The notes: a model not told the origin generated them from the letters alone. Positions 4,344 through 62,155 are shown, counted from the first letter of the stretch. The stretch: 64,000 nt of DNA from a virus (IMGVR_UViG_3300028840_006907:160001-224000); one strand, 5' to 3'. A program made the numbers and translations.

Positions 4344-6209
4344 TTATGACGCTTCGACTTCTTCTATGAATTCTTGCTCTGCAGGTTCTGGAACTGGTTC
4401 TGTTACCTGTTCTTCGACCTGGGGAGATTCTTTAGGTTTTGTGGAAGTCATCATATTAGACACATTCTTCACTACATTTGGAAGATTATCACCTAATCCT
4501 GCTTCTTTTAATAATTGATCTACAACAGGAGCCTGAGCGCGATATCCAAGAAGTTGATCCAATAAAGATTGAGTAGAAAAACCTCCTGCAGACATTTTTG
4601 ACCCACCGTTACCATTACTATGGCCATTGCTACCGGTCAAACCTGATACGTTGATAACTTTGAAAGCTTCAATTTTTTCAAGGGGTTTTACACTGGATTC
4701 AATTACTGCTGATATGTGTTCAATTATTTGGAGTTTTACACGCATATCAACAATGTCTTTAGAGAGCCTGTTTTCAGCTTCATTGAGTTTTTCCTGACCT
4801 TCAGCTTCGACTTCGTATTTTCTTTCATCGGCATCAGCTTGAATTTTGATAGCCTCAGCTTTGGCTTTGGCTTCAATTTTGATAGCCTCAGCACGATCTT
4901 GAGCTGCTTCTTTTTCAGCCTGTGCAAGAACTTTAATTTTGGCTGCATCTGATCCGGCTACTTCTTCAGCTCTAATAATTGTAATTTCTCTGGCACGATT
5001 AGCAATTTCTTTTTCACGAGCGGTGGTTACTTTTTCCTCTGCAGAAATAGCGAGTGCTCTAGCTTCATTTGCTTCCTGATCAGCCAAAGAGGTTTCTTTA
5101 GATTTATTAGCAACTTCAATATCTCTTTCCTGTTCAGCAAGTTTTATTGCTTTCTGTTTTTCGATGGTAGCTGACTCTACTGCTTGTTCTTTAACAATAG
5201 TAGCTGATTCAATTGCTTGTTCTTTTTCAATATTGGCTTCTTGTAAAGCTTTTTCTTTTATAATATTTGCTTCGGCAATGGCTTGTTCTTTTCTAATATT
5301 CTGTTCTTCAAGAGCTTTGGTAGTTTCGATTGTTTTCTTTTTAACTTCTTTTTCAGATTCTATCCTTGCTTCTTGGGCTATCTTATTTTGTTCAGCATTA
5401 AATTTTTCTTTTGTGGCATTTTCTTCTGCTGTCCTAGTAGCAATTTCACGTTCTTGTTCAAGTCTAGAATACTCTTTTTCTTTATTAATTTTTAAAGTCT
5501 GTTGTTCAGCTTGAAGATTTTTTGTTTCAATTTTTACTAGATTATCTCTTTCAATCTCATTACGTTCTTTTCTACGCTCTTCGATGATTCTAGTTAATGC
5601 TGTCAATCCCTCAGCATCAAAAGCATTATTCTCATTGAAGTGCTCTCTACTGGTTTGATCAAAACCTGTAAGTGACACAGTTTCAAGCTCTAAGCCATTT
5701 TTCTTAAGGTCTTCCAGAACATTGTTTTGGACTTTTTGCACAAAATCAGCACGTTGCTCATGCAGTTCTCTCATTTGCATTTGAGCAGCAACAGCTCTTA
5801 AGGCGTCAACGAATTTACCTTCAATAAGTTCACGTAGTTTCTCTGGGTCAAGAGTGCGGTCACCAAGAGTTTGAGCGGCATTTGCTATGGAATCAGCTTC
5901 TGGTTGTACCCGCATATAAAACTCTACAAGAACGTCAACTCTCATACGATCTTTTGTAATTAATGCGTCCTTTTCATTTCTTCTTACCGGTAATTTTAAA
6001 GTACTAAGTTTTACCCAGGTTATTTGATGAAGTACAGGTAATACTACTGCTCCACCTTCTTTTATAACTTTTTTCTTGCCCATACCAGTACGGACAAAAG
6101 CCATATCAGATGAAGCTTTTACGTACATCCTAGCAATAATTAATCCTATAACAATTAGTGCCACTAGGATTATACCTGCCATAATTAAAATAGGCATAAG
6201 GTTTTCCAT
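4344..6209 (-). CDS. SPFH/band-7 (flotillin-like) protein with long repetitive coiled coil
   Basis: N-terminal TM helix then SPFH-domain-like sequence (VRTGMGKKKVIKEGGAVVLPVLHQ...), long E/K/A-rich coiled coil with internal repeats (EKEQAIESATIVKEQAVESATIEKQKAI). SD AAAGGGA upstream of start. Confidence 0.7.
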   Translation of the reverse strand: MENLMPILIMAGIILVALIVIGLIIARMYVKASSDMAFVRTGMGKKKVIKEGGAVVLPVLHQITWVKLSTLKLPVRRNEKDALITKDRMRVDVLVEFYMRVQPEADSIANAAQTLGDRTLDPEKLRELIEGKFVDALRAVAAQMQMRELHEQRADFVQKVQNNVLEDLKKNGLELETVSLTGFDQTSREHFNENNAFDAEGLTALTRIIEERRKERNEIERDNLVKIETKNLQAEQQTLKINKEKEYSRLEQEREIATRTAEENATKEKFNAEQNKIAQEARIESEKEVKKKTIETTKALEEQNIRKEQAIAEANIIKEKALQEANIEKEQAIESATIVKEQAVESATIEKQKAIKLAEQERDIEVANKSKETSLADQEANEARALAISAEEKVTTAREKEIANRAREITIIRAEEVAGSDAAKIKVLAQAEKEAAQDRAEAIKIEAKAKAEAIKIQADADERKYEVEAEGQEKLNEAENRLSKDIVDMRVKLQIIEHISAVIESSVKPLEKIEAFKVINVSGLTGSNGHSNGNGGSKMSAGGFSTQSLLDQLLGYRAQAPVVDQLLKEAGLGDNLPNVVKNVSNMMTSTKPKESPQVEEQVTEPVPEPAEQEFIEEVEAS

Positions 6210-11711: not shown

Positions 11712-12353
11712 ATGAAAAATTTGGGCAAAACAATTGATCGATTAATCTCAATTGACCAGGGTCTTGAAAAATCTTTAAAACCCATAAAAAACAAATGGAA
11801 ACGATGGCCTAAAAGAACTATGAACTATTGGGCTGAACTTCTGGAAGTTTTAAATTCGGATGATTTGATGGAGCATCCTGATCGTGATAAAATGAGTCAA
11901 GTTCTTAATGATGCCAAAAAAAGGAAACGTCCTAATTATTCTTTTGAAGTAATATCAATGCATGATAGGATTGTAGGTCCTTTAACAGGTCTTTTAGCTG
12001 ATAAAATAAGACGTTTGGATCTCAGATCAATAAAAATAGGAAGAGACCGTGCTGAGGCTAATATGACGCATAATTTAAAGATGCAGATTGATGTGGCACG
12101 AAGAGAGCAACTTTTAGAAATTGAAACCAAAAAAATATGGGTTGCTTTAAGAGATGAATTTAAATTATGGACAAAGCCTGGTTATTACAATATCAAAGTT
12201 TCAACTGAAAATAATATCCTTTATATGGTGGAACAACTCCCACAACCTCAGTTGGTCGGACCAGGTGTAATAAAGATGAATCCGGATATGTTAAAAAAAT
12301 TTTTTGATTTTATGGGGATGGATCCTCCCCCCGAACTTTTTGGAGGTAAATAG
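11712..12353 (+). CDS. hypothetical protein
   Basis: 213-aa ORF, first gene of a three-gene plus-strand island. Confidence 0.3.
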   Translation: MKNLGKTIDRLISIDQGLEKSLKPIKNKWKRWPKRTMNYWAELLEVLNSDDLMEHPDRDKMSQVLNDAKKRKRPNYSFEVISMHDRIVGPLTGLLADKIRRLDLRSIKIGRDRAEANMTHNLKMQIDVARREQLLEIETKKIWVALRDEFKLWTKPGYYNIKVSTENNILYMVEQLPQPQLVGPGVIKMNPDMLKKFFDFMGMDPPPELFGGK

Positions 12354-12889
12354 TGATCAGAGCATTAAGAGTAGTTGAAGCATATTTAAAAGAAGCCTAT
12401 GATTTCAGCTCAGTCCAGGCTGAATTTCCTGAGAAGATAGCCCAGGAGCTTCGGGATTGGGGGTATAAACATATTCCTGAAGAAGCTCTTTCTGGTGACG
12501 GGTTTGAAGATGATAAACATGTGACTATTAAGTACGGAATCCATATTAATGATTTTACTGAAATAAGAGATCTGTTTAAAGATGAAAAACCGATAGAGAT
12601 GGTCCTTGGTAAAATGACCCTTTTTACTTCAAGTCCTGATTTTGATGTATTGAAAATTGATATTAAATCACCGGCTCTGCATCGATTAAACAAAGCTGTA
12701 TCAAAAAATTTTGAAGTCACAGATACACATCCAGAATACCTACCCCATTGCACAATAGCATATGTGAAGAAAGGTGCTGCAGATCCCTTTAATGGCGATA
12801 CTACATTTGAGGGTCGTAAGGTAATATCAGATTTAATTCTTTTTTCAGGAAAAGATAATCGTCATACGGAATTTAAATTGGTTAAATAA
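12353..12889 (+). CDS. 2H phosphoesterase (LigT/2'-5' RNA ligase / cyclic phosphodiesterase family)
   Basis: Two H-x-T-x motifs (DKHVTIKYG and LPHCTIAYV) at the spacing expected for the 2H fold. Confidence 0.55.
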   Translation: MIRALRVVEAYLKEAYDFSSVQAEFPEKIAQELRDWGYKHIPEEALSGDGFEDDKHVTIKYGIHINDFTEIRDLFKDEKPIEMVLGKMTLFTSSPDFDVLKIDIKSPALHRLNKAVSKNFEVTDTHPEYLPHCTIAYVKKGAADPFNGDTTFEGRKVISDLILFSGKDNRHTEFKLVK

Positions 12890-13681
12890 ATGAAATACGA
12901 TGTGATCATAATAATAGGTGGTGGTATTAATAAAGACGGTGACCTTCCTGAAGAGGCATCATTACGGGTCAAGGAAGGGGTAAAGAAGTATAATGATGGT
13001 ATTGCCCCGAAAATATTGATGTCAGGGCGTTGGGGTAAAGATATAGATTTTACTCCGAAGAAGAAAGAAGCAATAGCTATGAAAGAGATGGCTGTTGATT
13101 TAGGTGTACCATCCAAGGATATTTTAATTGAAACTAGGGCTATGGATACTTTAAGTAATGCTAAAGAATCTAAAAAAATTATTGATAATAGTGATTGGAA
13201 AAATATTCTTGTTGTAACCTTGGATTTTCATAAGGATCGGACTGAAAAAATATTTAGAGATATTTTCGGTGATTCTTATAATATAGATGTCTATGGAGGT
13301 AAGAGTAATTTAGAAGAGTCATTATATAAGAGACATCTGAAAATGGAAGATTTAAAAATGAAAAGATATGAGAGACAGAAAAAGTTTTCTTCTATAATAG
13401 ATACACTTGATCAAATTGCTGATGATATAGAATTACAGGATAAAAGAATTGCTCTGGCAATAGATATTGTCAGTGATCAAATAGAGAAGAGGGCTTTTTT
13501 CAATCAATCCACTTGGTTACCTGGGCGTTGTACAAGAACATATCCAAATAGGAATCAGAAATCTCATAGTAGATATGAGAAAAGAGCTACTTATATATGT
13601 ATTGCTTGTAATTTACGAAGATATTCGGCGAGTGAGTATTGCCCTCGATGCGGTCATTCTATGCAAAAGATCTTCTGCTAG
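12890..13681 (+). CDS. DUF218/YdcF-like domain protein with C-terminal zinc ribbon
   Basis: IIIIGGGINKDG...ILMSGRWG pattern typical of YdcF/ElyC-like domain; C-terminal CIACN...CPRCGH. Confidence 0.4.
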   Translation: MKYDVIIIIGGGINKDGDLPEEASLRVKEGVKKYNDGIAPKILMSGRWGKDIDFTPKKKEAIAMKEMAVDLGVPSKDILIETRAMDTLSNAKESKKIIDNSDWKNILVVTLDFHKDRTEKIFRDIFGDSYNIDVYGGKSNLEESLYKRHLKMEDLKMKRYERQKKFSSIIDTLDQIADDIELQDKRIALAIDIVSDQIEKRAFFNQSTWLPGRCTRTYPNRNQKSHSRYEKRATYICIACNLRRYSASEYCPRCGHSMQKIFC

Positions 13682-38805: not shown

Positions 38806-39086
38806 TTTTGTCTATTCCTTTAAAATTGATAGAAGCTATCCTATATAATGATATGGAACTAACAAGGGTTTTCGATAAGTAAAAAATAAAAAAAGTTTTT
38901 AAGTCTAATGGTTTGAGTAAGTTACAAGAGGTAATTTTAGGTTTAAAAAAACCATGTTTTTTGATAAGAATATATAATATAGAGTATAAATAATCCTGTT
39001 TTTATGATTTACTAAAAAAGTAATTAATATAAATAGCTATATGAATATGTATATATGAATATAGTTATTTATTTTTTCCTGAATAA

Positions 39087-39149
39087 GGAAAAGTAAAATA
39101 AAAAAGAACAGAAAAATAGTAGTAGAAGAAGAGAGGAATGAGGATTAAA
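39087..39149. repeat. 63-bp direct repeat, copy 1
   Basis: Identical to 40188..40250. Confidence 0.9.
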
Positions 39150-39395
39150 AAAGATATAGATGATATAAAAAGAACCAATATAATGAATTTAATAGTAAAA
39201 ATAAAAATTTAAGTCACCAATATAATGAATAAACTTATGAACAAAGTAAAAATATAACCTATAAAATCTTCAAAAAAAGTTAAATCATAACCTTATTTAT
39301 TCGAACCAGTTATAACAAAAAAAATAAAACCTTAAAAATTTTACTTATCACTTTACCTTTCTAACTTTGTATAAATAGTAGGAGGTAAATTTGAA

Positions 39396-39770
39396 ATGAA
39401 CACAATTTTTATCACAGGTTTGGATAAAATCTCTATTAAAAGATTCATCCAATTTATTCTAAAATACTTAAATGATTACCAAGTTGGTACACTTCATTAC
39501 TTAATGAGTGAAGAGAGCATAAACTATTACATCGAAGATTTTTCAAATAAATTTCAAAAAAGGATCTTCTCTTACTTCTTAAGGAAATCAGGAGATTCTA
39601 TACCCAATCTTCCTACTTCAATAACTGATAGTGCTGATCTTATCATATGGTTTGATTTATACAGTACTAAACCAATAGTTAAACAGAGTAAGACAGAACC
39701 GCATATTCTTAAAGGGGCTCTTATGGATTGGGCAAGACACATAGAGAAATTAGAGAAAGGGGGATTGTAG
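39396..39770 (+). CDS. hypothetical protein
   Basis: 124-aa ORF with AGGAGG SD; lies between the 63-bp repeats. Confidence 0.35.
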   Translation: MNTIFITGLDKISIKRFIQFILKYLNDYQVGTLHYLMSEESINYYIEDFSNKFQKRIFSYFLRKSGDSIPNLPTSITDSADLIIWFDLYSTKPIVKQSKTEPHILKGALMDWARHIEKLEKGGL

Positions 39771-40160
39771 AAAGCCAGTTTGAGGAGGATATTAGGGCTC
39801 AACCCTGTTTGAGGACCACCGGGGCACACGAGGCCGTTGTAACGATGTAAGTCGGTAGTGCCGTGTCATTTAGGAGTTCGATCCAGGGGGATAGATCGTG
39901 CCATGACTCCTGTCAGTATACCGTCATAGGTAAAACCGAGTTACTCAAGATATATTATACCGGTCTGAAGGGTTCATCAAACATGAGAAGTTTACATGGG
40001 TACAAGCCGTTTCTAAGAGTACCTCAAAATTGAATTTTAGCTGTTTTAGGAAACAAAGCCTTACTATGCATGTAGTAAGCGAAATGTCGCAGGCTCGTGC
40101 CTCGCTAGTGACCCAGCGGGGATGGTGAAGACAGAAAGGTGCATTAAAATTGAGTAATAG
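39771..40160. ncRNA. candidate structured RNA of unknown class (GC-rich, hairpin-rich non-coding segment)
   Basis: Local GC well above flanks, several perfect short hairpins (e.g. cttacta-tgcatg-tagtaag), no convincing ORF. Confidence 0.3.
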
Positions 40161-40187
40161 ATGTATCAATAAATAAAAAAATCAATA

Positions 40188-40250
40188 GGAAAAGTAAAAT
40201 AAAAAAGAACAGAAAAATAGTAGTAGAAGAAGAGAGGAATGAGGATTAAA
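40188..40250. repeat. 63-bp direct repeat, copy 2
   Basis: Identical to 39087..39149, spacing 1101 bp. Confidence 0.9.
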
Positions 40251-40376
40251 TAGTGAATTAAATCAATGAGTTACAGTGAGTGCTACTGTGTAATTTAAAG
40301 CGGATTTAAATTTAAAATTAGTACTAAAAAATACAGTATAGTCTAAAAATAAAGGACTATTTATTAGGAATAAATT

Positions 40377-44002: not shown

Positions 44003-47000
44003 ATGGAGATCGAGATGCTATCACCTTTTGGGAAAATTGTCTGGGAAGATCGATACGCGCTGAAGGATGAATATGGGAAATTAATTGAAAAAAATATTTT
44101 AGAAACATTTCGTAGAGTTGCTACAGCTATTGCTTCTAAGGAAAAAGACTCTAAGTTTTGGGGTGACAAATTTTATAAGATTATGGCAGACCAATCTTTC
44201 TGTCCAGCCGGTAGAGTCCTAGCCCATTCAGGTACACATTATTCTCAACTTCTCAATTGTTTTGTTCTCCCATTCCAGGATGACAGTCTGGAAGAGATTA
44301 TGAACACTGGTAAAAACATGGCTATTGTTCAAAAATATGGTGGGGGCTGTATTGGAGGTGAGAGTAATATTCTTACTAATAAAGGTGTTGTACCATTAAA
44401 AGAAATTGTTGAAGGAAATGATAAAGATCTTAAAGTACTATCTTTTAATTCTGATAATAATGAGATGGAATACTGTGATATTTTAGAAAGACATACAAAT
44501 AATTTATCTGGGGATCGTGTATTCGAAATTGAGTTCGATAATACAAAAGGCGGTGTTGCATCAAGAATAAGAGCTAGCGATTGGCATCCCTTTTTTGTTT
44601 TTGATGGAGTAAAGATAATCCAAGTACGTGCTGATGAGTTAAAACCTGGGATGGCTGTAATAGGCTCAACTGATTTAGGGGTAAATTTAAAGTATGATTC
44701 TATGGGTTGGTTATTAGGTTATATTGCTGGTGACGGTTCGATTGATACTAATAATGGGGAAGATGTACGTGTTAGGGTAGTAGATGACAGTGAAGAGTGT
44801 GTTAAACGTGCAGCAGGAATATTTAATACATCTTATAAACCTTCTAGTGATAAACGTTATAAAGTAAAAATGTGGGCTTGTGAGGTTTATGGAGATGAAG
44901 CTGGGATGGTAAAGGATGAGTTTGGGGGGTATCAAACTAGTGGTACAAAACATGTCCCGAATTCTATCTGGGAAAGTTCTCCTGAAAGAAGACTTTCTTT
45001 TTTAGTTGGGCATATTGATGCAGATGGCTGGTTTAATAAAGAGAAAAAAAGATTTGAAGTTTTTACTGTTAGTAATGAATTGGCAAAAGAATTAATAGCC
45101 TTAGCTGGTGGTCTTGGTATTCGGGCTTCACTACGTTTTAGAAAATCACGTAAAGAAAATGAGCAAGATGGTTGGGAAGTTAGGTATAGTAGCTCTCAAT
45201 TTTCGATTGATTTAATTGTTAATATTAGTGCAAAACATAACCCACTCAATGCTGGATGGGTTATGGGTACTATAAATTTATCTCATGAATGGAAAGATCA
45301 TTTAAAAAGCGTAGGTATTAATGTTTATACAAATAAAGCATGGAGAAAGTCAATTGAAATTGATGGTGTAAAAAGATCATTAGTTTATTGGTTACAGCAT
45401 GGTAAAGCTTCAAGAGAAACTGCTGCTTCTATTCTTAGAGTGTGTGGTGAAGAAAAGATAGCAAGTGCTGTTTTATCTAGCCAAATAGTACTCTCTTCAA
45501 AGGCTACAGGAATTTCAGAAACATTATATGATCTCACTATTGCAAAAAATCAAACATATATGGCATCAGACCCAACTACAGGGGCTTATGTTGTTGTGCA
45601 TAATACAGGATTTAATTTCAGTAGGCTCAGACCATCAGGTTCATATATAAAAGGTGTCAATGGTCGTAGTAGTGGACCCATCGGATTTATTAGCATGATG
45701 TCAACTATCTCAGAAATAATTGAACAAGGCGGGACCCGCAGGGGCGCGTCAATAGGGCTTCTTGAGGCATGGCACCCTGATTTATGGGAGTTTGTTTCTT
45801 ATAAAACTGAACATAATTGGGAATGTCTTCGAGAATTTATTGATGTGAATGATTACGATAAATGGGAATCATTTAAATATGAAAATTTATATAAATGGCA
45901 AATGTTCAATGTCTCTGTAGGAATTACTGATGATTTCTTAGAATCTGTTAAAAACAATAAGGAATGGGTATTTAATTGGAAAGGGGAAGAGTGGGAACTT
46001 TATACCGTTATTTTTAAGAAATATATAAGTGAAGGTAATTACAAAGAATTAACATTTGAAGTTACAGCTAACAATGATCCTACTGCTATATGGAAAGTAA
46101 GAAAGAAAATACCTTATCCTACTGGTAGTGATATATTTGAAGTTACATCAAAAAGAAAAGTAAAAGCTTCCGAGATCTGGGATAGACTGTGTTATAATGC
46201 CTGGGCTGATGGATGTCCGGGCATTATCAATTTAAGTACTGCTCGTAGGATGCATAATTTAGAATATGCCTTCCCTATAGAAGCTACTAATCCTTGTTTT
46301 ACTGGAGATTGTAAATTGGATACTATCAATGGTCCTATGACTTTTGAAAGTCTTGAGGATAAAGAAATTGATCTTAAAACTCCATATGGTTCTATTGAAA
46401 AAGGTAGAATTTGGAAAACAGGGGTAAAATCTACTATCAGATTAAAATTTAATGATGGTAGTTCAATAACGGTTACTCCCGATCAACTATTTTTGTGTCA
46501 TAAAGGAAAAGAGATACGGGCTAAGGATTGTTTAAATAAATGTTTAAATACTTCGGATATACCGTTAAGTGTAGTTTCAATAGAGGATAATGGTGAACAA
46601 GAGGTCTATGATTTTTCAATCCCATGTAATTGGGGTATAGTTAATGGAATAGTGGCTCATAATTGTGGGGAGCAACCTTTAGGGGGATTTAGTTCTTGCA
46701 ATTTGTCAAGCATACTCCTTCCTAATTTTGTTATAGAGGATACCAAATCAGTTGATTGGGATAAACTTAAAGAGGTTGTTCATACTGCTGTCAGATTTTC
46801 GGATAATGTTGTAGATAATTGTGAATTTCCGATTCCGGAAATTAAAGATAAAGCATATCAGGAAAGACGTGTCGGACTAGGTACTATGGGAGTTCATGAC
46901 ATGTTAATCAAAATGGGACTAGATTATGATAGTGATGTGGGTCGTGATGCTGTGGAAGAGGTATTAAGATTTATTCGGGATGAAGCTTATAAAGCATCAA

Positions 47001-48085
47001 TTAAAATTGCGGAAGAGAAGGGGTCTTTTCCAGCCTTTAAAAAGAAAGAAATTTTAAAGAGTGGGTTTATAAAAACACTTCCACCAGAGATCGTAAAATT
47101 GATTGGGAAAAATGGTATTAGAAATAGTGCCCTTTTATCCCAGGCACCCACAGGATCGATCTCAGCGTTAAATAACGTTTCATCTGGGTGTGAACCATGG
47201 TATTCATTATCCTTCCAAAGAAACACTCGTTTGGGTTCCTATGAAGATGGTTGTCCAACTTATATTGAATGGAAGAAAAATAACCCCGAAGCTCCCATAC
47301 CATCCTATTTTAAAACAGCTCCAGAAATAAGCCCTACAGATCACGTAAAAATGCTTATTCTTTTTAGTAAATACATTGATTCAGCGGTGAGTAAGACAGT
47401 TAATCTCCCAAATCATACAACAGTAGATACAGTTAAAGAGACATTTATTTATGCTATGGAAAATGGTGTAAAAGGTCTGACTGTTTTTCGGGATGGTTCT
47501 AAAGAAGGTGTTTTAGTAAATAAACAAAACAAGAAAAAAATTGAAGAAATAATTCCATATACAGATAAAGAAGATTGTTATGAAAATGTAATGTCTCCTA
47601 AAAAGCGGGGAGATAAAACAACTGGTTCAACATATCGTATTCATATGCAAAGTCATAATTTATATGTTACAGTTAATCGAAATAGAGATGGTGATTTAGT
47701 AGAGCTTTTTACTACAGTTGGAGAGAGTAAAAAACCTAATGCACATCATACTAGTGGTGTTGAAGATTCCTGGGCAGAGGGTCTTGGTAAAATAATTAGT
47801 CTAGCTCTGCGTGCAGGAGTGAAACCTAGTTCAATAATTCGGAATTTAAAAAATATTCCATCAGATAAACCAGTATTTGTTACTATCGGTGATAATGAAA
47901 ATTCTGAGCATATACCTTCTCCACCTCATGCTATTGCTAGGGTAATAGAAGATGAGATGAGTAATGGTGAAGAAGAAATTAATATTCAAGGAGGTTATTG
48001 CTCAGAATGTGGCTCAACAAATACTAAAAAGAAGAGTCCCACTTGTTACGAGTGTTTTGACTGTGGCTACGTAGCTTGTGGTTAA
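44003..48085 (+). CDS. nrdJ: class II (adenosylcobalamin-type) ribonucleotide reductase interrupted by two inteins
   Basis: Extein motifs QKYGGG|TGFNFSRLRPSG, GGTRRGA, TNP|CGEQPLGG; C-terminal Cys cluster; 1360 aa before splicing, about 818 aa after. Confidence 0.85.
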   Translation: MEIEMLSPFGKIVWEDRYALKDEYGKLIEKNILETFRRVATAIASKEKDSKFWGDKFYKIMADQSFCPAGRVLAHSGTHYSQLLNCFVLPFQDDSLEEIMNTGKNMAIVQKYGGGCIGGESNILTNKGVVPLKEIVEGNDKDLKVLSFNSDNNEMEYCDILERHTNNLSGDRVFEIEFDNTKGGVASRIRASDWHPFFVFDGVKIIQVRADELKPGMAVIGSTDLGVNLKYDSMGWLLGYIAGDGSIDTNNGEDVRVRVVDDSEECVKRAAGIFNTSYKPSSDKRYKVKMWACEVYGDEAGMVKDEFGGYQTSGTKHVPNSIWESSPERRLSFLVGHIDADGWFNKEKKRFEVFTVSNELAKELIALAGGLGIRASLRFRKSRKENEQDGWEVRYSSSQFSIDLIVNISAKHNPLNAGWVMGTINLSHEWKDHLKSVGINVYTNKAWRKSIEIDGVKRSLVYWLQHGKASRETAASILRVCGEEKIASAVLSSQIVLSSKATGISETLYDLTIAKNQTYMASDPTTGAYVVVHNTGFNFSRLRPSGSYIKGVNGRSSGPIGFISMMSTISEIIEQGGTRRGASIGLLEAWHPDLWEFVSYKTEHNWECLREFIDVNDYDKWESFKYENLYKWQMFNVSVGITDDFLESVKNNKEWVFNWKGEEWELYTVIFKKYISEGNYKELTFEVTANNDPTAIWKVRKKIPYPTGSDIFEVTSKRKVKASEIWDRLCYNAWADGCPGIINLSTARRMHNLEYAFPIEATNPCFTGDCKLDTINGPMTFESLEDKEIDLKTPYGSIEKGRIWKTGVKSTIRLKFNDGSSITVTPDQLFLCHKGKEIRAKDCLNKCLNTSDIPLSVVSIEDNGEQEVYDFSIPCNWGIVNGIVAHNCGEQPLGGFSSCNLSSILLPNFVIEDTKSVDWDKLKEVVHTAVRFSDNVVDNCEFPIPEIKDKAYQERRVGLGTMGVHDMLIKMGLDYDSDVGRDAVEEVLRFIRDEAYKASIKIAEEKGSFPAFKKKEILKSGFIKTLPPEIVKLIGKNGIRNSALLSQAPTGSISALNNVSSGCEPWYSLSFQRNTRLGSYEDGCPTYIEWKKNNPEAPIPSYFKTAPEISPTDHVKMLILFSKYIDSAVSKTVNLPNHTTVDTVKETFIYAMENGVKGLTVFRDGSKEGVLVNKQNKKKIEEIIPYTDKEDCYENVMSPKKRGDKTTGSTYRIHMQSHNLYVTVNRNRDGDLVELFTTVGESKKPNAHHTSGVEDSWAEGLGKIISLALRAGVKPSSIIRNLKNIPSDKPVFVTIGDNENSEHIPSPPHAIARVIEDEMSNGEEEINIQGGYCSECGSTNTKKKSPTCYECFDCGYVACG
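44348..45604 (+). mobile_element. intein 1 (419 aa) with LAGLIDADG homing-endonuclease domain
   Basis: Starts with Cys after QKYGGG, ends VVHN before Thr; two LAGLIDADG motifs (LGYIAGDGSID, LVGHIDADGWF). Confidence 0.8.
46295..46663 (+). mobile_element. intein 2 (123-aa mini-intein, no endonuclease domain)
   Basis: Inserted between TNP and CGEQ of the active-site motif; starts CFTGD, ends VAHN before Cys. Confidence 0.75.
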
Positions 48086-61570: not shown

Positions 61571-62155
61571 ATGTTAGGGGGCAATCTCTTGAATAATAAG
61601 CATTCCGACTATGTTTTCCACGAACCCGGTGGAAGTTCACTTCCTGGTTCACCTGATGCGAATCCCTATGTCTTTTACCCACCGGATGAGATTCGACGAT
61701 TATTAGAATCAGAGAAAGATCCTGATGAATTGGCTAAAATGAAGAGTGCCTTACGACAATGGGAACGGATTTATGTCTATCCTGGTTACCCATATAGGTT
61801 GGCAAAAGCATTAAGATTTATAGCAGCCAAGCTTCAGAAGATAGCTGAACGAACTCCAGTCCCACAGAACAAACCTTATTACAATGATAGTCAAGTTCCA
61901 GAAGGTTTTGAAGAGATTATGGATTCTCTTCGCAGTCCTCACGATAACCAGAATCAGATCTGGGATGATTATCACAGACAAGGCGAACGACCTAAAGTTG
62001 ATATAGATACAGGAAAAGGTGACTTTCTATCTCCATCGGAACCACCTATTGGTGATACCGTAAAGGAAAGAGGAGATGGTCCAGATCCGGAAGGAATGGA
62101 GATTCCTCAACCGGGTACTGGTGGTGATCCTGATTCATGGTTTCAAGGAATTTAA
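61571..62155 (+). CDS. hypothetical protein
   Basis: 194-aa ORF. Confidence 0.3.
   Translation: MLGGNLLNNKHSDYVFHEPGGSSLPGSPDANPYVFYPPDEIRRLLESEKDPDELAKMKSALRQWERIYVYPGYPYRLAKALRFIAAKLQKIAERTPVPQNKPYYNDSQVPEGFEEIMDSLRSPHDNQNQIWDDYHRQGERPKVDIDTGKGDFLSPSEPPIGDTVKERGDGPDPEGMEIPQPGTGGDPDSWFQGI

Follow-up and report, generated by a model that had tools for sequence, protein, structure and literature searches.

A conserved structured RNA without a described family lies directly behind a small protein gene in uncultured huge phages

What is encoded by a short G+C-rich island in viral DNA that is otherwise poor in G and C? The present analysis concerns positions 39771-40160 of a 64,000-nucleotide (nt) stretch from a virus (IMGVR_UViG_3300028840_006907:160001-224000), called the window below. 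An original prediction, made from the sequence of the window, had described this island as hairpin-dense and non-coding and had proposed that it is a candidate large structured RNA. The open reading frame (ORF) that ends directly before the island, ORF124, is encoded on a JGI metagenome contig of 388,651 bp, and the identical protein occurs on another contig of 469,617 bp; the DNA comes from a huge phage, or a phage-like element, that has not been cultured. Comparison of related phages indicates that the segment is very probably the gene for a previously undescribed structured RNA on the + strand, with a core of approximately 370 nt and a conserved element of approximately 400 nt.

The island is real and exceptional. 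Its G+C fraction (GC) is 0.456, compared with a mean of 0.328 for the window (standard deviation 0.035, calculated over windows of 390 nt). A GC of 0.456 or more is reached in just 5 of 6361 such 390-nt windows, every one of which overlaps positions 39771-40160, and no other part of the 64 kb is as rich in G+C. The second-highest GC bin (0.425, positions 61601-62000) falls within an ORF of 194 amino acids (aa) at 61571-62155 and is probably coding. No open frame runs through the island, where all three types of stop codon break every frame. The variable alignment columns, sorted by position modulo 3, number 72/67/71 in the RNA and 70/53/107 in the neighbouring ORF124, so the substitutions in the RNA have no codon periodicity. 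The view that the segment is not an RNA at all, being instead a decayed protein gene or a purely DNA-level element, could point to the mechanical ORFs of 56-85 aa that overlap the island and to a 116-aa minus-strand gene that was called over the RNA region in one relative. However, the mechanical ORFs have no matches in Pfam or PHROGs, the stop-free stretches at the island are anywhere from 20 to 126 codons long depending on the lineage, and the overlapping ORFs are not conserved. A decayed gene was rejected on these grounds and for lack of codon periodicity. In addition, compensatory Watson-Crick and G.U changes on one strand, described below, are the signature of an RNA, so this view as a whole retains hardly any probability. 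Recoding of the ORF124 stop codon, with read-through into the island, was also rejected because of in-frame TAG, TGA and TAA codons and the same absence of periodicity. The claim that the island holds no convincing ORF therefore stands.

Searches with the ORF124 protein returned 7 close homologues, a profile search returned 26 homologues (33-100% identity, 107-133 aa), and an exhaustive search returned 105 clusters at 50% identity, virtually all of them stand-alone proteins. The encoding contigs of twelve lineages of related uncultured huge phages were compared, and individual lineages are given below by contig numbers such as L003. In all twelve, the ORF124 homologue (119-133 aa) is followed by a gene-free stretch with raised G+C, and a homologue of the RNA lies directly 3' of it on the same strand. 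When the islands are aligned across lineages, blocks without variation alternate with sites that differ in length. The group has a narrow distribution. When ORF124, delta' and the DNA of the locus were compared with INPHARED phages, only delta' was matched, at no more than 31% identity; ORF124, ORF271 and delta' found no relative among IMG/VR viral contigs, and ORF124 found none among 185,579 bacterial and archaeal species representatives (GTDB). A DNA pattern scan for the RNA gave no match in viral contigs and only one locus in metagenome contigs, which was already in the set, while a search of bacterial genomes with a pattern from the most conserved block gave just three matches, all attributable to chance and one lying within a coding region. 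Within the window, nhmmer detected the RNA once.

The evidence that these islands specify a folded RNA comes from covariation. The mean pairwise nucleotide identity is 0.754 for the RNA, compared with 0.704 for the adjacent ORF124 coding sequence. For seven distinct close relatives, RNAalifold gave a consensus of 78 pairs in 14 helices, in which 32 pairs show compensatory double changes. In a slid control, the 3' partners were moved by 1-3 columns. Standard pairs fill 96.5% of the cells of the full structure and 37-43% after sliding, the number of compensatory pairs falls from 32 to 2-5, and the observed values were matched by none of 500 column shuffles. This structure was taken from the same alignment, and is thus favoured in the slid control, so the universal helices were also tested on distant lineages. 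The alignment used for this purpose covers the core in 11 lineages, with the variable interior of the 5' domain swapped for an artificial GAAA loop. The core helices (P0, H1, H2, H9, H11 and H12) are 86% paired across the 11 lineages, compared with 37-45% when slid; 20 of their 34 pairs are compensatory, and none of 500 shuffles reached the observed values. In H1 all eight pairs covary. Three of the four pairs of H2 covary, and this helix is 100% paired although it takes the forms UCAG/CUGA, UCGG/CCGA, UUAG/CUAA, UUGG/CCAA and GUAA/UUAC. H12 has four compensatory pairs, and one pair of P0 covaries, being seen as GU, AU, GC and UG. G.U pairs are frequent when the + strand is read and would appear as C.A on its complement, which fixes the orientation of the RNA as +, the same as that of ORF124. 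Thus the large structured RNA that had been proposed now has a covariation-supported consensus across homologous loci.

The anatomy of the RNA is summarized in Table 1, together with the other features of the locus. The proposed boundaries of 39771-40160 nearly coincide with those of the core and of the conserved element. The detailed hairpins of the original prediction fared less well: its four inverted repeats are all present in the sequence, but only cttacta/tagtaag (40060-40079), the stem of H10, is kept in relatives. In place of the aggg/ccct hairpin, CCCU at 39803-39806 pairs with AGGG at 39885-39888, with a change from C-G to U-A in three lineages. The cgatc/gatcg repeat nested within aggagt/actcct, and the aggc/gcct repeat, are absent from relatives. 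The invariant internal loop between H1 and H2 presumably resembles motifs of the loop-E type. The interior of the 5' domain measures 196-239 nt in close relatives, 123 nt in L015, 112 nt in L020 and 85 nt in L018. This range of 85-239 nt points to modular, lineage-specific sub-domains, and the natural deletions in L015, L018 and L020 define a minimal core. The RNA of L018 (locus 5400-5480 and 5480-5740) is the most divergent homologue and has an extra GC-rich hairpin upstream of H1. A candidate pseudoknot between UCACCG (39816-39821 region) and CGGUGA in the tail is compatible with most close relatives; it shows no compensatory changes, and L015 keeps the tail though it is without the partner. 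A search of the window for a trans target of the conserved tail gave just one chance match with three mismatches.

Table 1. Coordinates of the RNA, of its parts and of neighbouring features in the window, and of the direct repeats in related lineages (coordinates of each contig).
Feature	Position	Strand	Remarks
AT-rich divergent intergenic region	38806..39395	.	590 nt, GC 0.205; includes the GC minimum of the window, 0.18
64-nt perfect direct repeat, left copy	39086..39149	+	
ORF124	39396..39770	+	124 aa; stop codon directly abuts the RNA
Purine motif GAAAGGGGGA	39755..39764	+	Consensus GAAAGGRGG; 8-25 nt upstream of P0
Structured RNA gene	39771..40168	+	Core 39774-40140 closed by P0; close relatives conserved to ~40168
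P0	39774-76 (GCC) with 40138-40 (GGU)	+	Joins both ends of the molecule
5' domain	39779..40028	+	Bounded by H1 and H2
H1	39779-85 / 40022-28	+	Covariation
Invariant internal loop, H1-H2	AGGAUA 39786-91 opposite GAGUA 40017-21	+	
H2	39792-95 / 40013-16	+	Covariation
H3	39803-06 / 39885-88	+	Inside H2
H4	39814-20 / 39873-78	+	Inside H2
H5, variable hairpin	39823-62	+	
H6	39898-916 / 39965-40003	+	
H7	39919-32	+	Conserved GUCRUA loop
H8	39935-41 / 39959-64	+	
3' domain	40040..40140	+	H9-H12, tail, 3' strand of P0
H9	40040-57	+	
H10	40058-79	+	cttacta/tagtaag
H11	40079-90	+	GCGA-AAUG-UCGC
H12	40100-21	+	
Conserved purine-rich single-stranded tail	40122-37	+	AUGGUGAAGACAGAAA
64-nt perfect direct repeat, right copy	40187..40250	+	~20 nt after the RNA
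Twin hairpins	40271..40312	+	TTACAGTG..CTACTGTAA and AATTTAAA-GCGGA-TTTAAATT; after the right repeat, before the next genes
L003 repeats	258-321/1416-1479		64 nt, 98% identity
L011 repeats	1-30/1037-1066		At least 30 nt, 100%; contig closes on itself after 1036 nt
L015 repeats	5865-5913/6712-6760		49 nt, 98% identity
L016 repeats	156-205/1088-1137		50 nt, 100% identity
L019 repeats	624-667/1536-1579		44 nt, 98% identity
L020 repeats	31-97/865-931		67 nt, 87% identity

Does the RNA belong to a family that is already described? At the gathering score, Rfam gave no match in the window. With permissive filters and E<=10, a search of 801 nt around the island gave only two noise hits, and a search of ten homologous loci (49.6 kb) at E<=10 gave nothing relevant. 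ARAGORN found neither a transfer RNA (tRNA) nor a transfer-messenger RNA (tmRNA) in the whole window. The suggestion of an undescribed class is borne out by these searches. That the RNA is a strongly diverged relative of RNase P RNA, tmRNA, group I or II introns, GOLLD, ROOL or HEARO is extremely improbable, since neither the window nor the ten loci gave a match at these thresholds. Both the RNA and ORF124 fall outside every described family in Rfam 15, Pfam, PHROGs and PDB, and no described counterpart of the architecture of the module was found in the literature that was searched.

Several candidates were rejected individually. The short, conserved and purine-rich strings GUAGAGGAUAUC on the 5' side and GACAGAAAGGU on the 3' side bear a likeness to the CR-I and CR-V regions of RNase P RNA. 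However, RNase P RNA has a different topology, and its covariance models (bacterial types A and B, archaeal) gave no match. The CR-I-like AGGAUA lies in a nested loop opposite GAGUA, between helices H1 and H2 that are supported by covariation, so there is no P4 pseudoknot. The two RNAs are alike in their comparable size and in having their ends closed by a helix; they differ in that the partner here, ORF124, has a predicted P-loop fold and is not RnpA-like, and in that the window is without tRNA genes. In the case of tmRNA, ARAGORN was blank, and relatives do not keep the GTTCGATCC string of 39877-39885. Group I and group II introns had no Rfam match, and they are excluded because the ORF124 homologues end at the stop codon before the RNA and AT-rich non-coding DNA comes after it. 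GOLLD, ROOL, HEARO/omega RNA, OLE and raiA were rejected for want of a covariance-model match, and no IscB/TnpB-type gene was found near the RNA. The present RNA shares with GOLLD and ROOL that it is a phage-encoded, multi-domain, covarying RNA of several hundred nt, found as a conserved non-coding island. Unlike them, it is smaller (approximately 370-400 nt) and is tied to one small protein gene and a replication locus rather than to tRNA clusters. GOLLD and ROOL reportedly form oligomeric cages (bioRxiv 10.1101/2024.12.08.627333).

Beyond the original prediction, the locus has an upstream partner gene, flanking 64-nt repeats and a location at the point where replication genes diverge. The partner gene, ORF124, was modelled with AlphaFold2 from an alignment of 26 sequences as a three-layer alpha/beta domain, with a predicted local distance difference test (pLDDT) score of 89.7 and a predicted template modelling (pTM) score of 0.84. 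The predicted fold resembles P-loop cores of the RecA, DnaB, Twinkle and superfamily 3 (SF3) helicase type. A Foldseek comparison of the model with PDB gave nothing significant, and a viral structure library gave marginal matches to SF3 helicase and Rep cores. At the place of the Walker A motif, where GxxxxGK[ST] is expected, the family has xSPDKIS, so hydrolysis of nucleoside triphosphates by ORF124 is doubtful. The family is mildly basic, with a median isoelectric point of 8.8.

In every ORF124 homologue the stop codon comes just before the RNA. A scan, whose promoter part covered sigma-70-type sites only, found nothing like a promoter or terminator between the ORF124 stop codon and the RNA. 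A GAAAGGRGG motif is present in all lineages, either within the last codons of ORF124 or in the spacer after its stop. The C-terminal residues that it encodes are not conserved, which indicates that the constraint is on the nucleotides. The two genes are thus linked by co-occurrence in 12 of 12 lineages, by a shared strand and by direct abutment without promoter or terminator, and a ribonucleoprotein would be the simplest reading of this arrangement. That the ORF124 protein and the RNA work together is, in our judgement, rather likely. A precedent of a kind is the pRNA of phi29, also a structured phage RNA that acts only alongside phage proteins, including a P-loop ATPase. However, there is no match to the Rfam pRNA model, the context here is replication and not packaging, the RNA is twice as long, and ORF124 is without a canonical Walker A motif.

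The position of the module is fixed. Genes point leftward over positions 1-38,805, with the exception of one small island, and rightward from 39,396; the cumulative GC skew has its minimum at approximately 38,800, at this switch of gene strand. The exception is an island of three + strand genes at 11712-13681, where the local GC skew is positive. The lowest-GC stretch of the window lies directly beside its highest-GC stretch, the RNA. To the left of the module are genes for RecA, an SbcCD-like nuclease/ATPase, a RecD2-like helicase and LigA, and to the right are genes for clamp-loader subunits and ribonucleotide reductase (RNR). Contigs of sufficient length show the same order, with a RecD2-like helicase, (SLT), NAD-dependent ligase and a small acidic ORF on the minus strand to the left, and ORF124, the island, the delta' and delta subunits of DNA polymerase III, a 214-aa ORF and RNR on the plus strand to the right. 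In the window, the long operon that runs downstream of the RNA in the same orientation consists of ORF60, ORF271, delta', delta and RNR. The RNR large subunit (44003-48085) is split by an intein that carries a homing endonuclease domain (LAGLIDADG/Hom_end), and two intein hits were obtained in the relative L015. The minus strand at 4344-6209 encodes a flotillin/SPFH (Band 7) protein of 621 aa.

Approximately 30% of huge phage genomes have a GC skew that points to bidirectional replication (PMC7162821), and RNA-based replication origins have been described in mycobacteriophage prophages (PMC7157519). ColE1 RNA II, the origin R-loop transcripts of T4 and the mycobacteriophage origins all resemble the present locus in having a non-coding transcript of several hundred nt by an AT-rich, origin-like region amid replication functions. 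The minimum of the GC skew also fits such a context, and the purine-rich tract that follows the RNA in most lineages could stabilise an RNA:DNA hybrid. They differ in that there is no homology and in that the present fold is more elaborate and more conserved than primers need. No sign of an antisense regulator was found: the RNA contains no minus-strand promoter-like site (in the scan for sigma-70-type sites only) and has no match to the RNAI model.

In at least 7 of the 10 assessable lineages the module stands between direct repeats of 44-67 nt that are nearly identical to each other and whose sequence is specific to the lineage. In the window the 64-nt repeat occurs in exactly two copies in 64 kb. 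The repeats of L003 are resolved by reads, as its contig was assembled with k=141; in L008 and L009 no repeats are present within their short contigs. The right repeat starts 6-46 nt past the RNA across lineages. Since the repeats are identical within a genome and diverged between genomes, they appear to evolve in concert, and gene conversion, recurrent rounds of excision and integration, or selection acting on identity itself could account for this. In the window, no 80-nt stretches are richer in purines than the repeats (0.82-0.85), and a purine- or A-rich tract stands behind the RNA in 7 of 10 lineages. No inverted repeat, promoter or terminator match was found inside the 64-nt repeat. Repeat-flanked cassettes known as PeSL, which recombine to mini-circles, occur in T4-type phages (PMC2839356, PMC4122927) and are similar in that short near-identical direct repeats able to recombine stand around small gene modules. 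However, a PeSL consists of a sigma-70-type promoter and a terminator stem-loop, and there are many per genome, flanking variable ORFans; the present repeat occurs twice only, without a stem-loop or promoter match, around one conserved syntenic module.

Other motifs lie near the repeats. Between the left repeat and ORF124, ACCAATATAATGAAT occurs twice on the + strand (39174-88 and 39216-30), 42 nt apart; it includes a TATAAT that, from its sequence, resembles a promoter -10 element, and a related TATAATGAACT is found at the same place in relatives. The twin hairpins beyond the right repeat have one copy in the window and are conserved in position in L003 (~1495-1535), L008 (~1195-1236), L009 (~1133-1174) and L010 (~908-949). 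Their second stem, which is AT-rich and 8 bp long, has compensatory changes between relatives, and the pair may serve as an operator, as a site of processing or as a terminator of unusual type. In one lineage, represented by the contigs L003 (2-207 and 330-404) and L004 (1-132), iteron-like tandem repeats precede the left repeat, with units of 27-55 nt in approximately 5 copies and a 44-nt unit in 2-3 copies. This array has no equivalent in the window.

What might such a module do? The best overall explanation, held tentatively and falling just short of probable, is that the RNA works with the ORF124 protein and acts at or near a replication origin. The RNA would be made as the 3' part of the ORF124 transcript and would assemble with the ORF124 protein as a ribonucleoprotein, and this module would act at or near the replication origin of the phage. 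There the RNA may be an origin transcript or primer of the R-loop type, or the ribonucleoprotein may license or regulate initiation. Several observations weigh against this explanation. A role of the module in replication initiation or control is read solely from its position and is, taken by itself, doubtful. The inflection of the GC skew is the same point as the switch of gene orientation, so it is suggestive and is no independent locator of an origin. The flanking repeats are absent in L018, and the purine tract is missing in L015, L018 and L020. The longest words that the RNA and the repeats share, or in which they are complementary, are no longer than in shuffles; guiding of the RNA to the flanking repeats was rejected because this complementarity is at chance level. 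The ends of the RNA, its stability and its co-transcription with ORF124 are all matters that we infer. In a dinucleotide-shuffle test on the sequence of the island by itself, the folding energy had a z of +0.22 on the + strand and -1.36 on the minus strand, which is within chance. The density of hairpins that had been noted by eye is thus not significant, and the fold is visible only by comparing relatives. A bolder version, in which ORF124 and the RNA are a self-contained RNA-protein origin cassette that primes or licenses replication, with an RNA that is possibly catalytic, with flanking repeats that recombination keeps identical and possibly with looping out or amplification as a mini-circle (0.83-1.16 kb), is less likely still. 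If it were true, the cassette would be a viral origin type and a large RNA class without described counterpart.

The most serious competitor, although an unlikely one, is a cis-acting messenger RNA element, serving either as a long 3' untranslated region of ORF124 or as the leader of the replication operon that lies downstream, with a role in stability, processing, termination or antitermination, or translation. It would account for an RNA that begins at the ORF124 stop with no promoter-like or terminator-like site between them, for the long co-oriented operon downstream, and for the purine motif resembling a Shine-Dalgarno sequence before the RNA and the conserved twin hairpins after it. However, approximately 370 nt with 14 helices and invariant internal and hairpin loops, maintained across proteins that are 33-66% identical, far exceed what known stabilisers or antiterminators need; the next genes are separated from the RNA by a repeat, by a spacer rich in A and by distinct promoter-like sequences; and no riboswitch or leader family was matched. 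It is distinctly less probable that ORF124 and the RNA form a small element able to excise or move, or else an integrated mini-replicon, of 0.83-1.16 kb between repeat starts, which would loop out or amplify through recombination at its direct repeats. The repeats of 44-67 nt in at least seven lineages, with sequences that differ, would be expected from ongoing recombination, the phage encodes RecA, and cassettes flanked by PeSL do form mini-circles (PMC2839356). In addition, one Logan contig (L011) closes as a 1036-nt cycle, and L002 corresponds exactly to the segment between the repeats with k-1 overlaps added; such closed or short graph contigs are, however, equally expected from a simple repeat-flanked segment. 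The unit holds the same position and synteny in every lineage and has diverged alongside its neighbours, which argues for vertical inheritance. Moreover, it contains no recombinase gene, its repeats are without the PeSL promoter and stem-loop, and neither an empty site nor a second copy was found.

Two other accounts of the RNA have only a slim chance each. It could be a new large ribozyme, self-processing or acting in trans, with ORF124 as its protein cofactor, which would be compatible with the other readings. Its size, multi-domain build, modular peripheral insertions and invariant unpaired nucleotides at junctions (AGGAUA/GAGUA, the CGCAU region and the GGUGAAGACAGAAAGG tail) are typical of large ribozymes, but it has no similarity to Rfam ribozymes and no substrate can be inferred. 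Alternatively, it could serve in host takeover or against host defence, soaking up a host protein or a defence system as a decoy or sponge soon after infection begins. Such a role would suit an RNA that is phage-specific (absent from the 185,579 bacterial and archaeal species representatives) and located in a probable early or replication gene region, and other large phage-associated RNAs exist (GOLLD, ROOL). It would not predict that the RNA is so strictly tied to a single phage protein and to the replication locus, and there is no mimicry of a known RNA such as tRNA, a CRISPR repeat or 6S.

Large, highly structured non-coding RNAs are rare, and almost all of the classes that are understood (those of the ribosome, RNase P, introns, tmRNA, OLE and ROOL/GOLLD) have revealed new biochemistry. 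The RNA described here is tractable, since it has a dedicated partner protein, a fixed place amid replication machinery and natural minimal versions in L015, L018 and L020. The repeats, identical within a genome and specific to a lineage, are a separate puzzle concerning concerted evolution in phage genomes. Should the RNA have a role at the origin, it would reveal how replication begins in giant phages whose replisomes are of bacterial type; if it has no role there, it would still represent a new RNA-protein complex.

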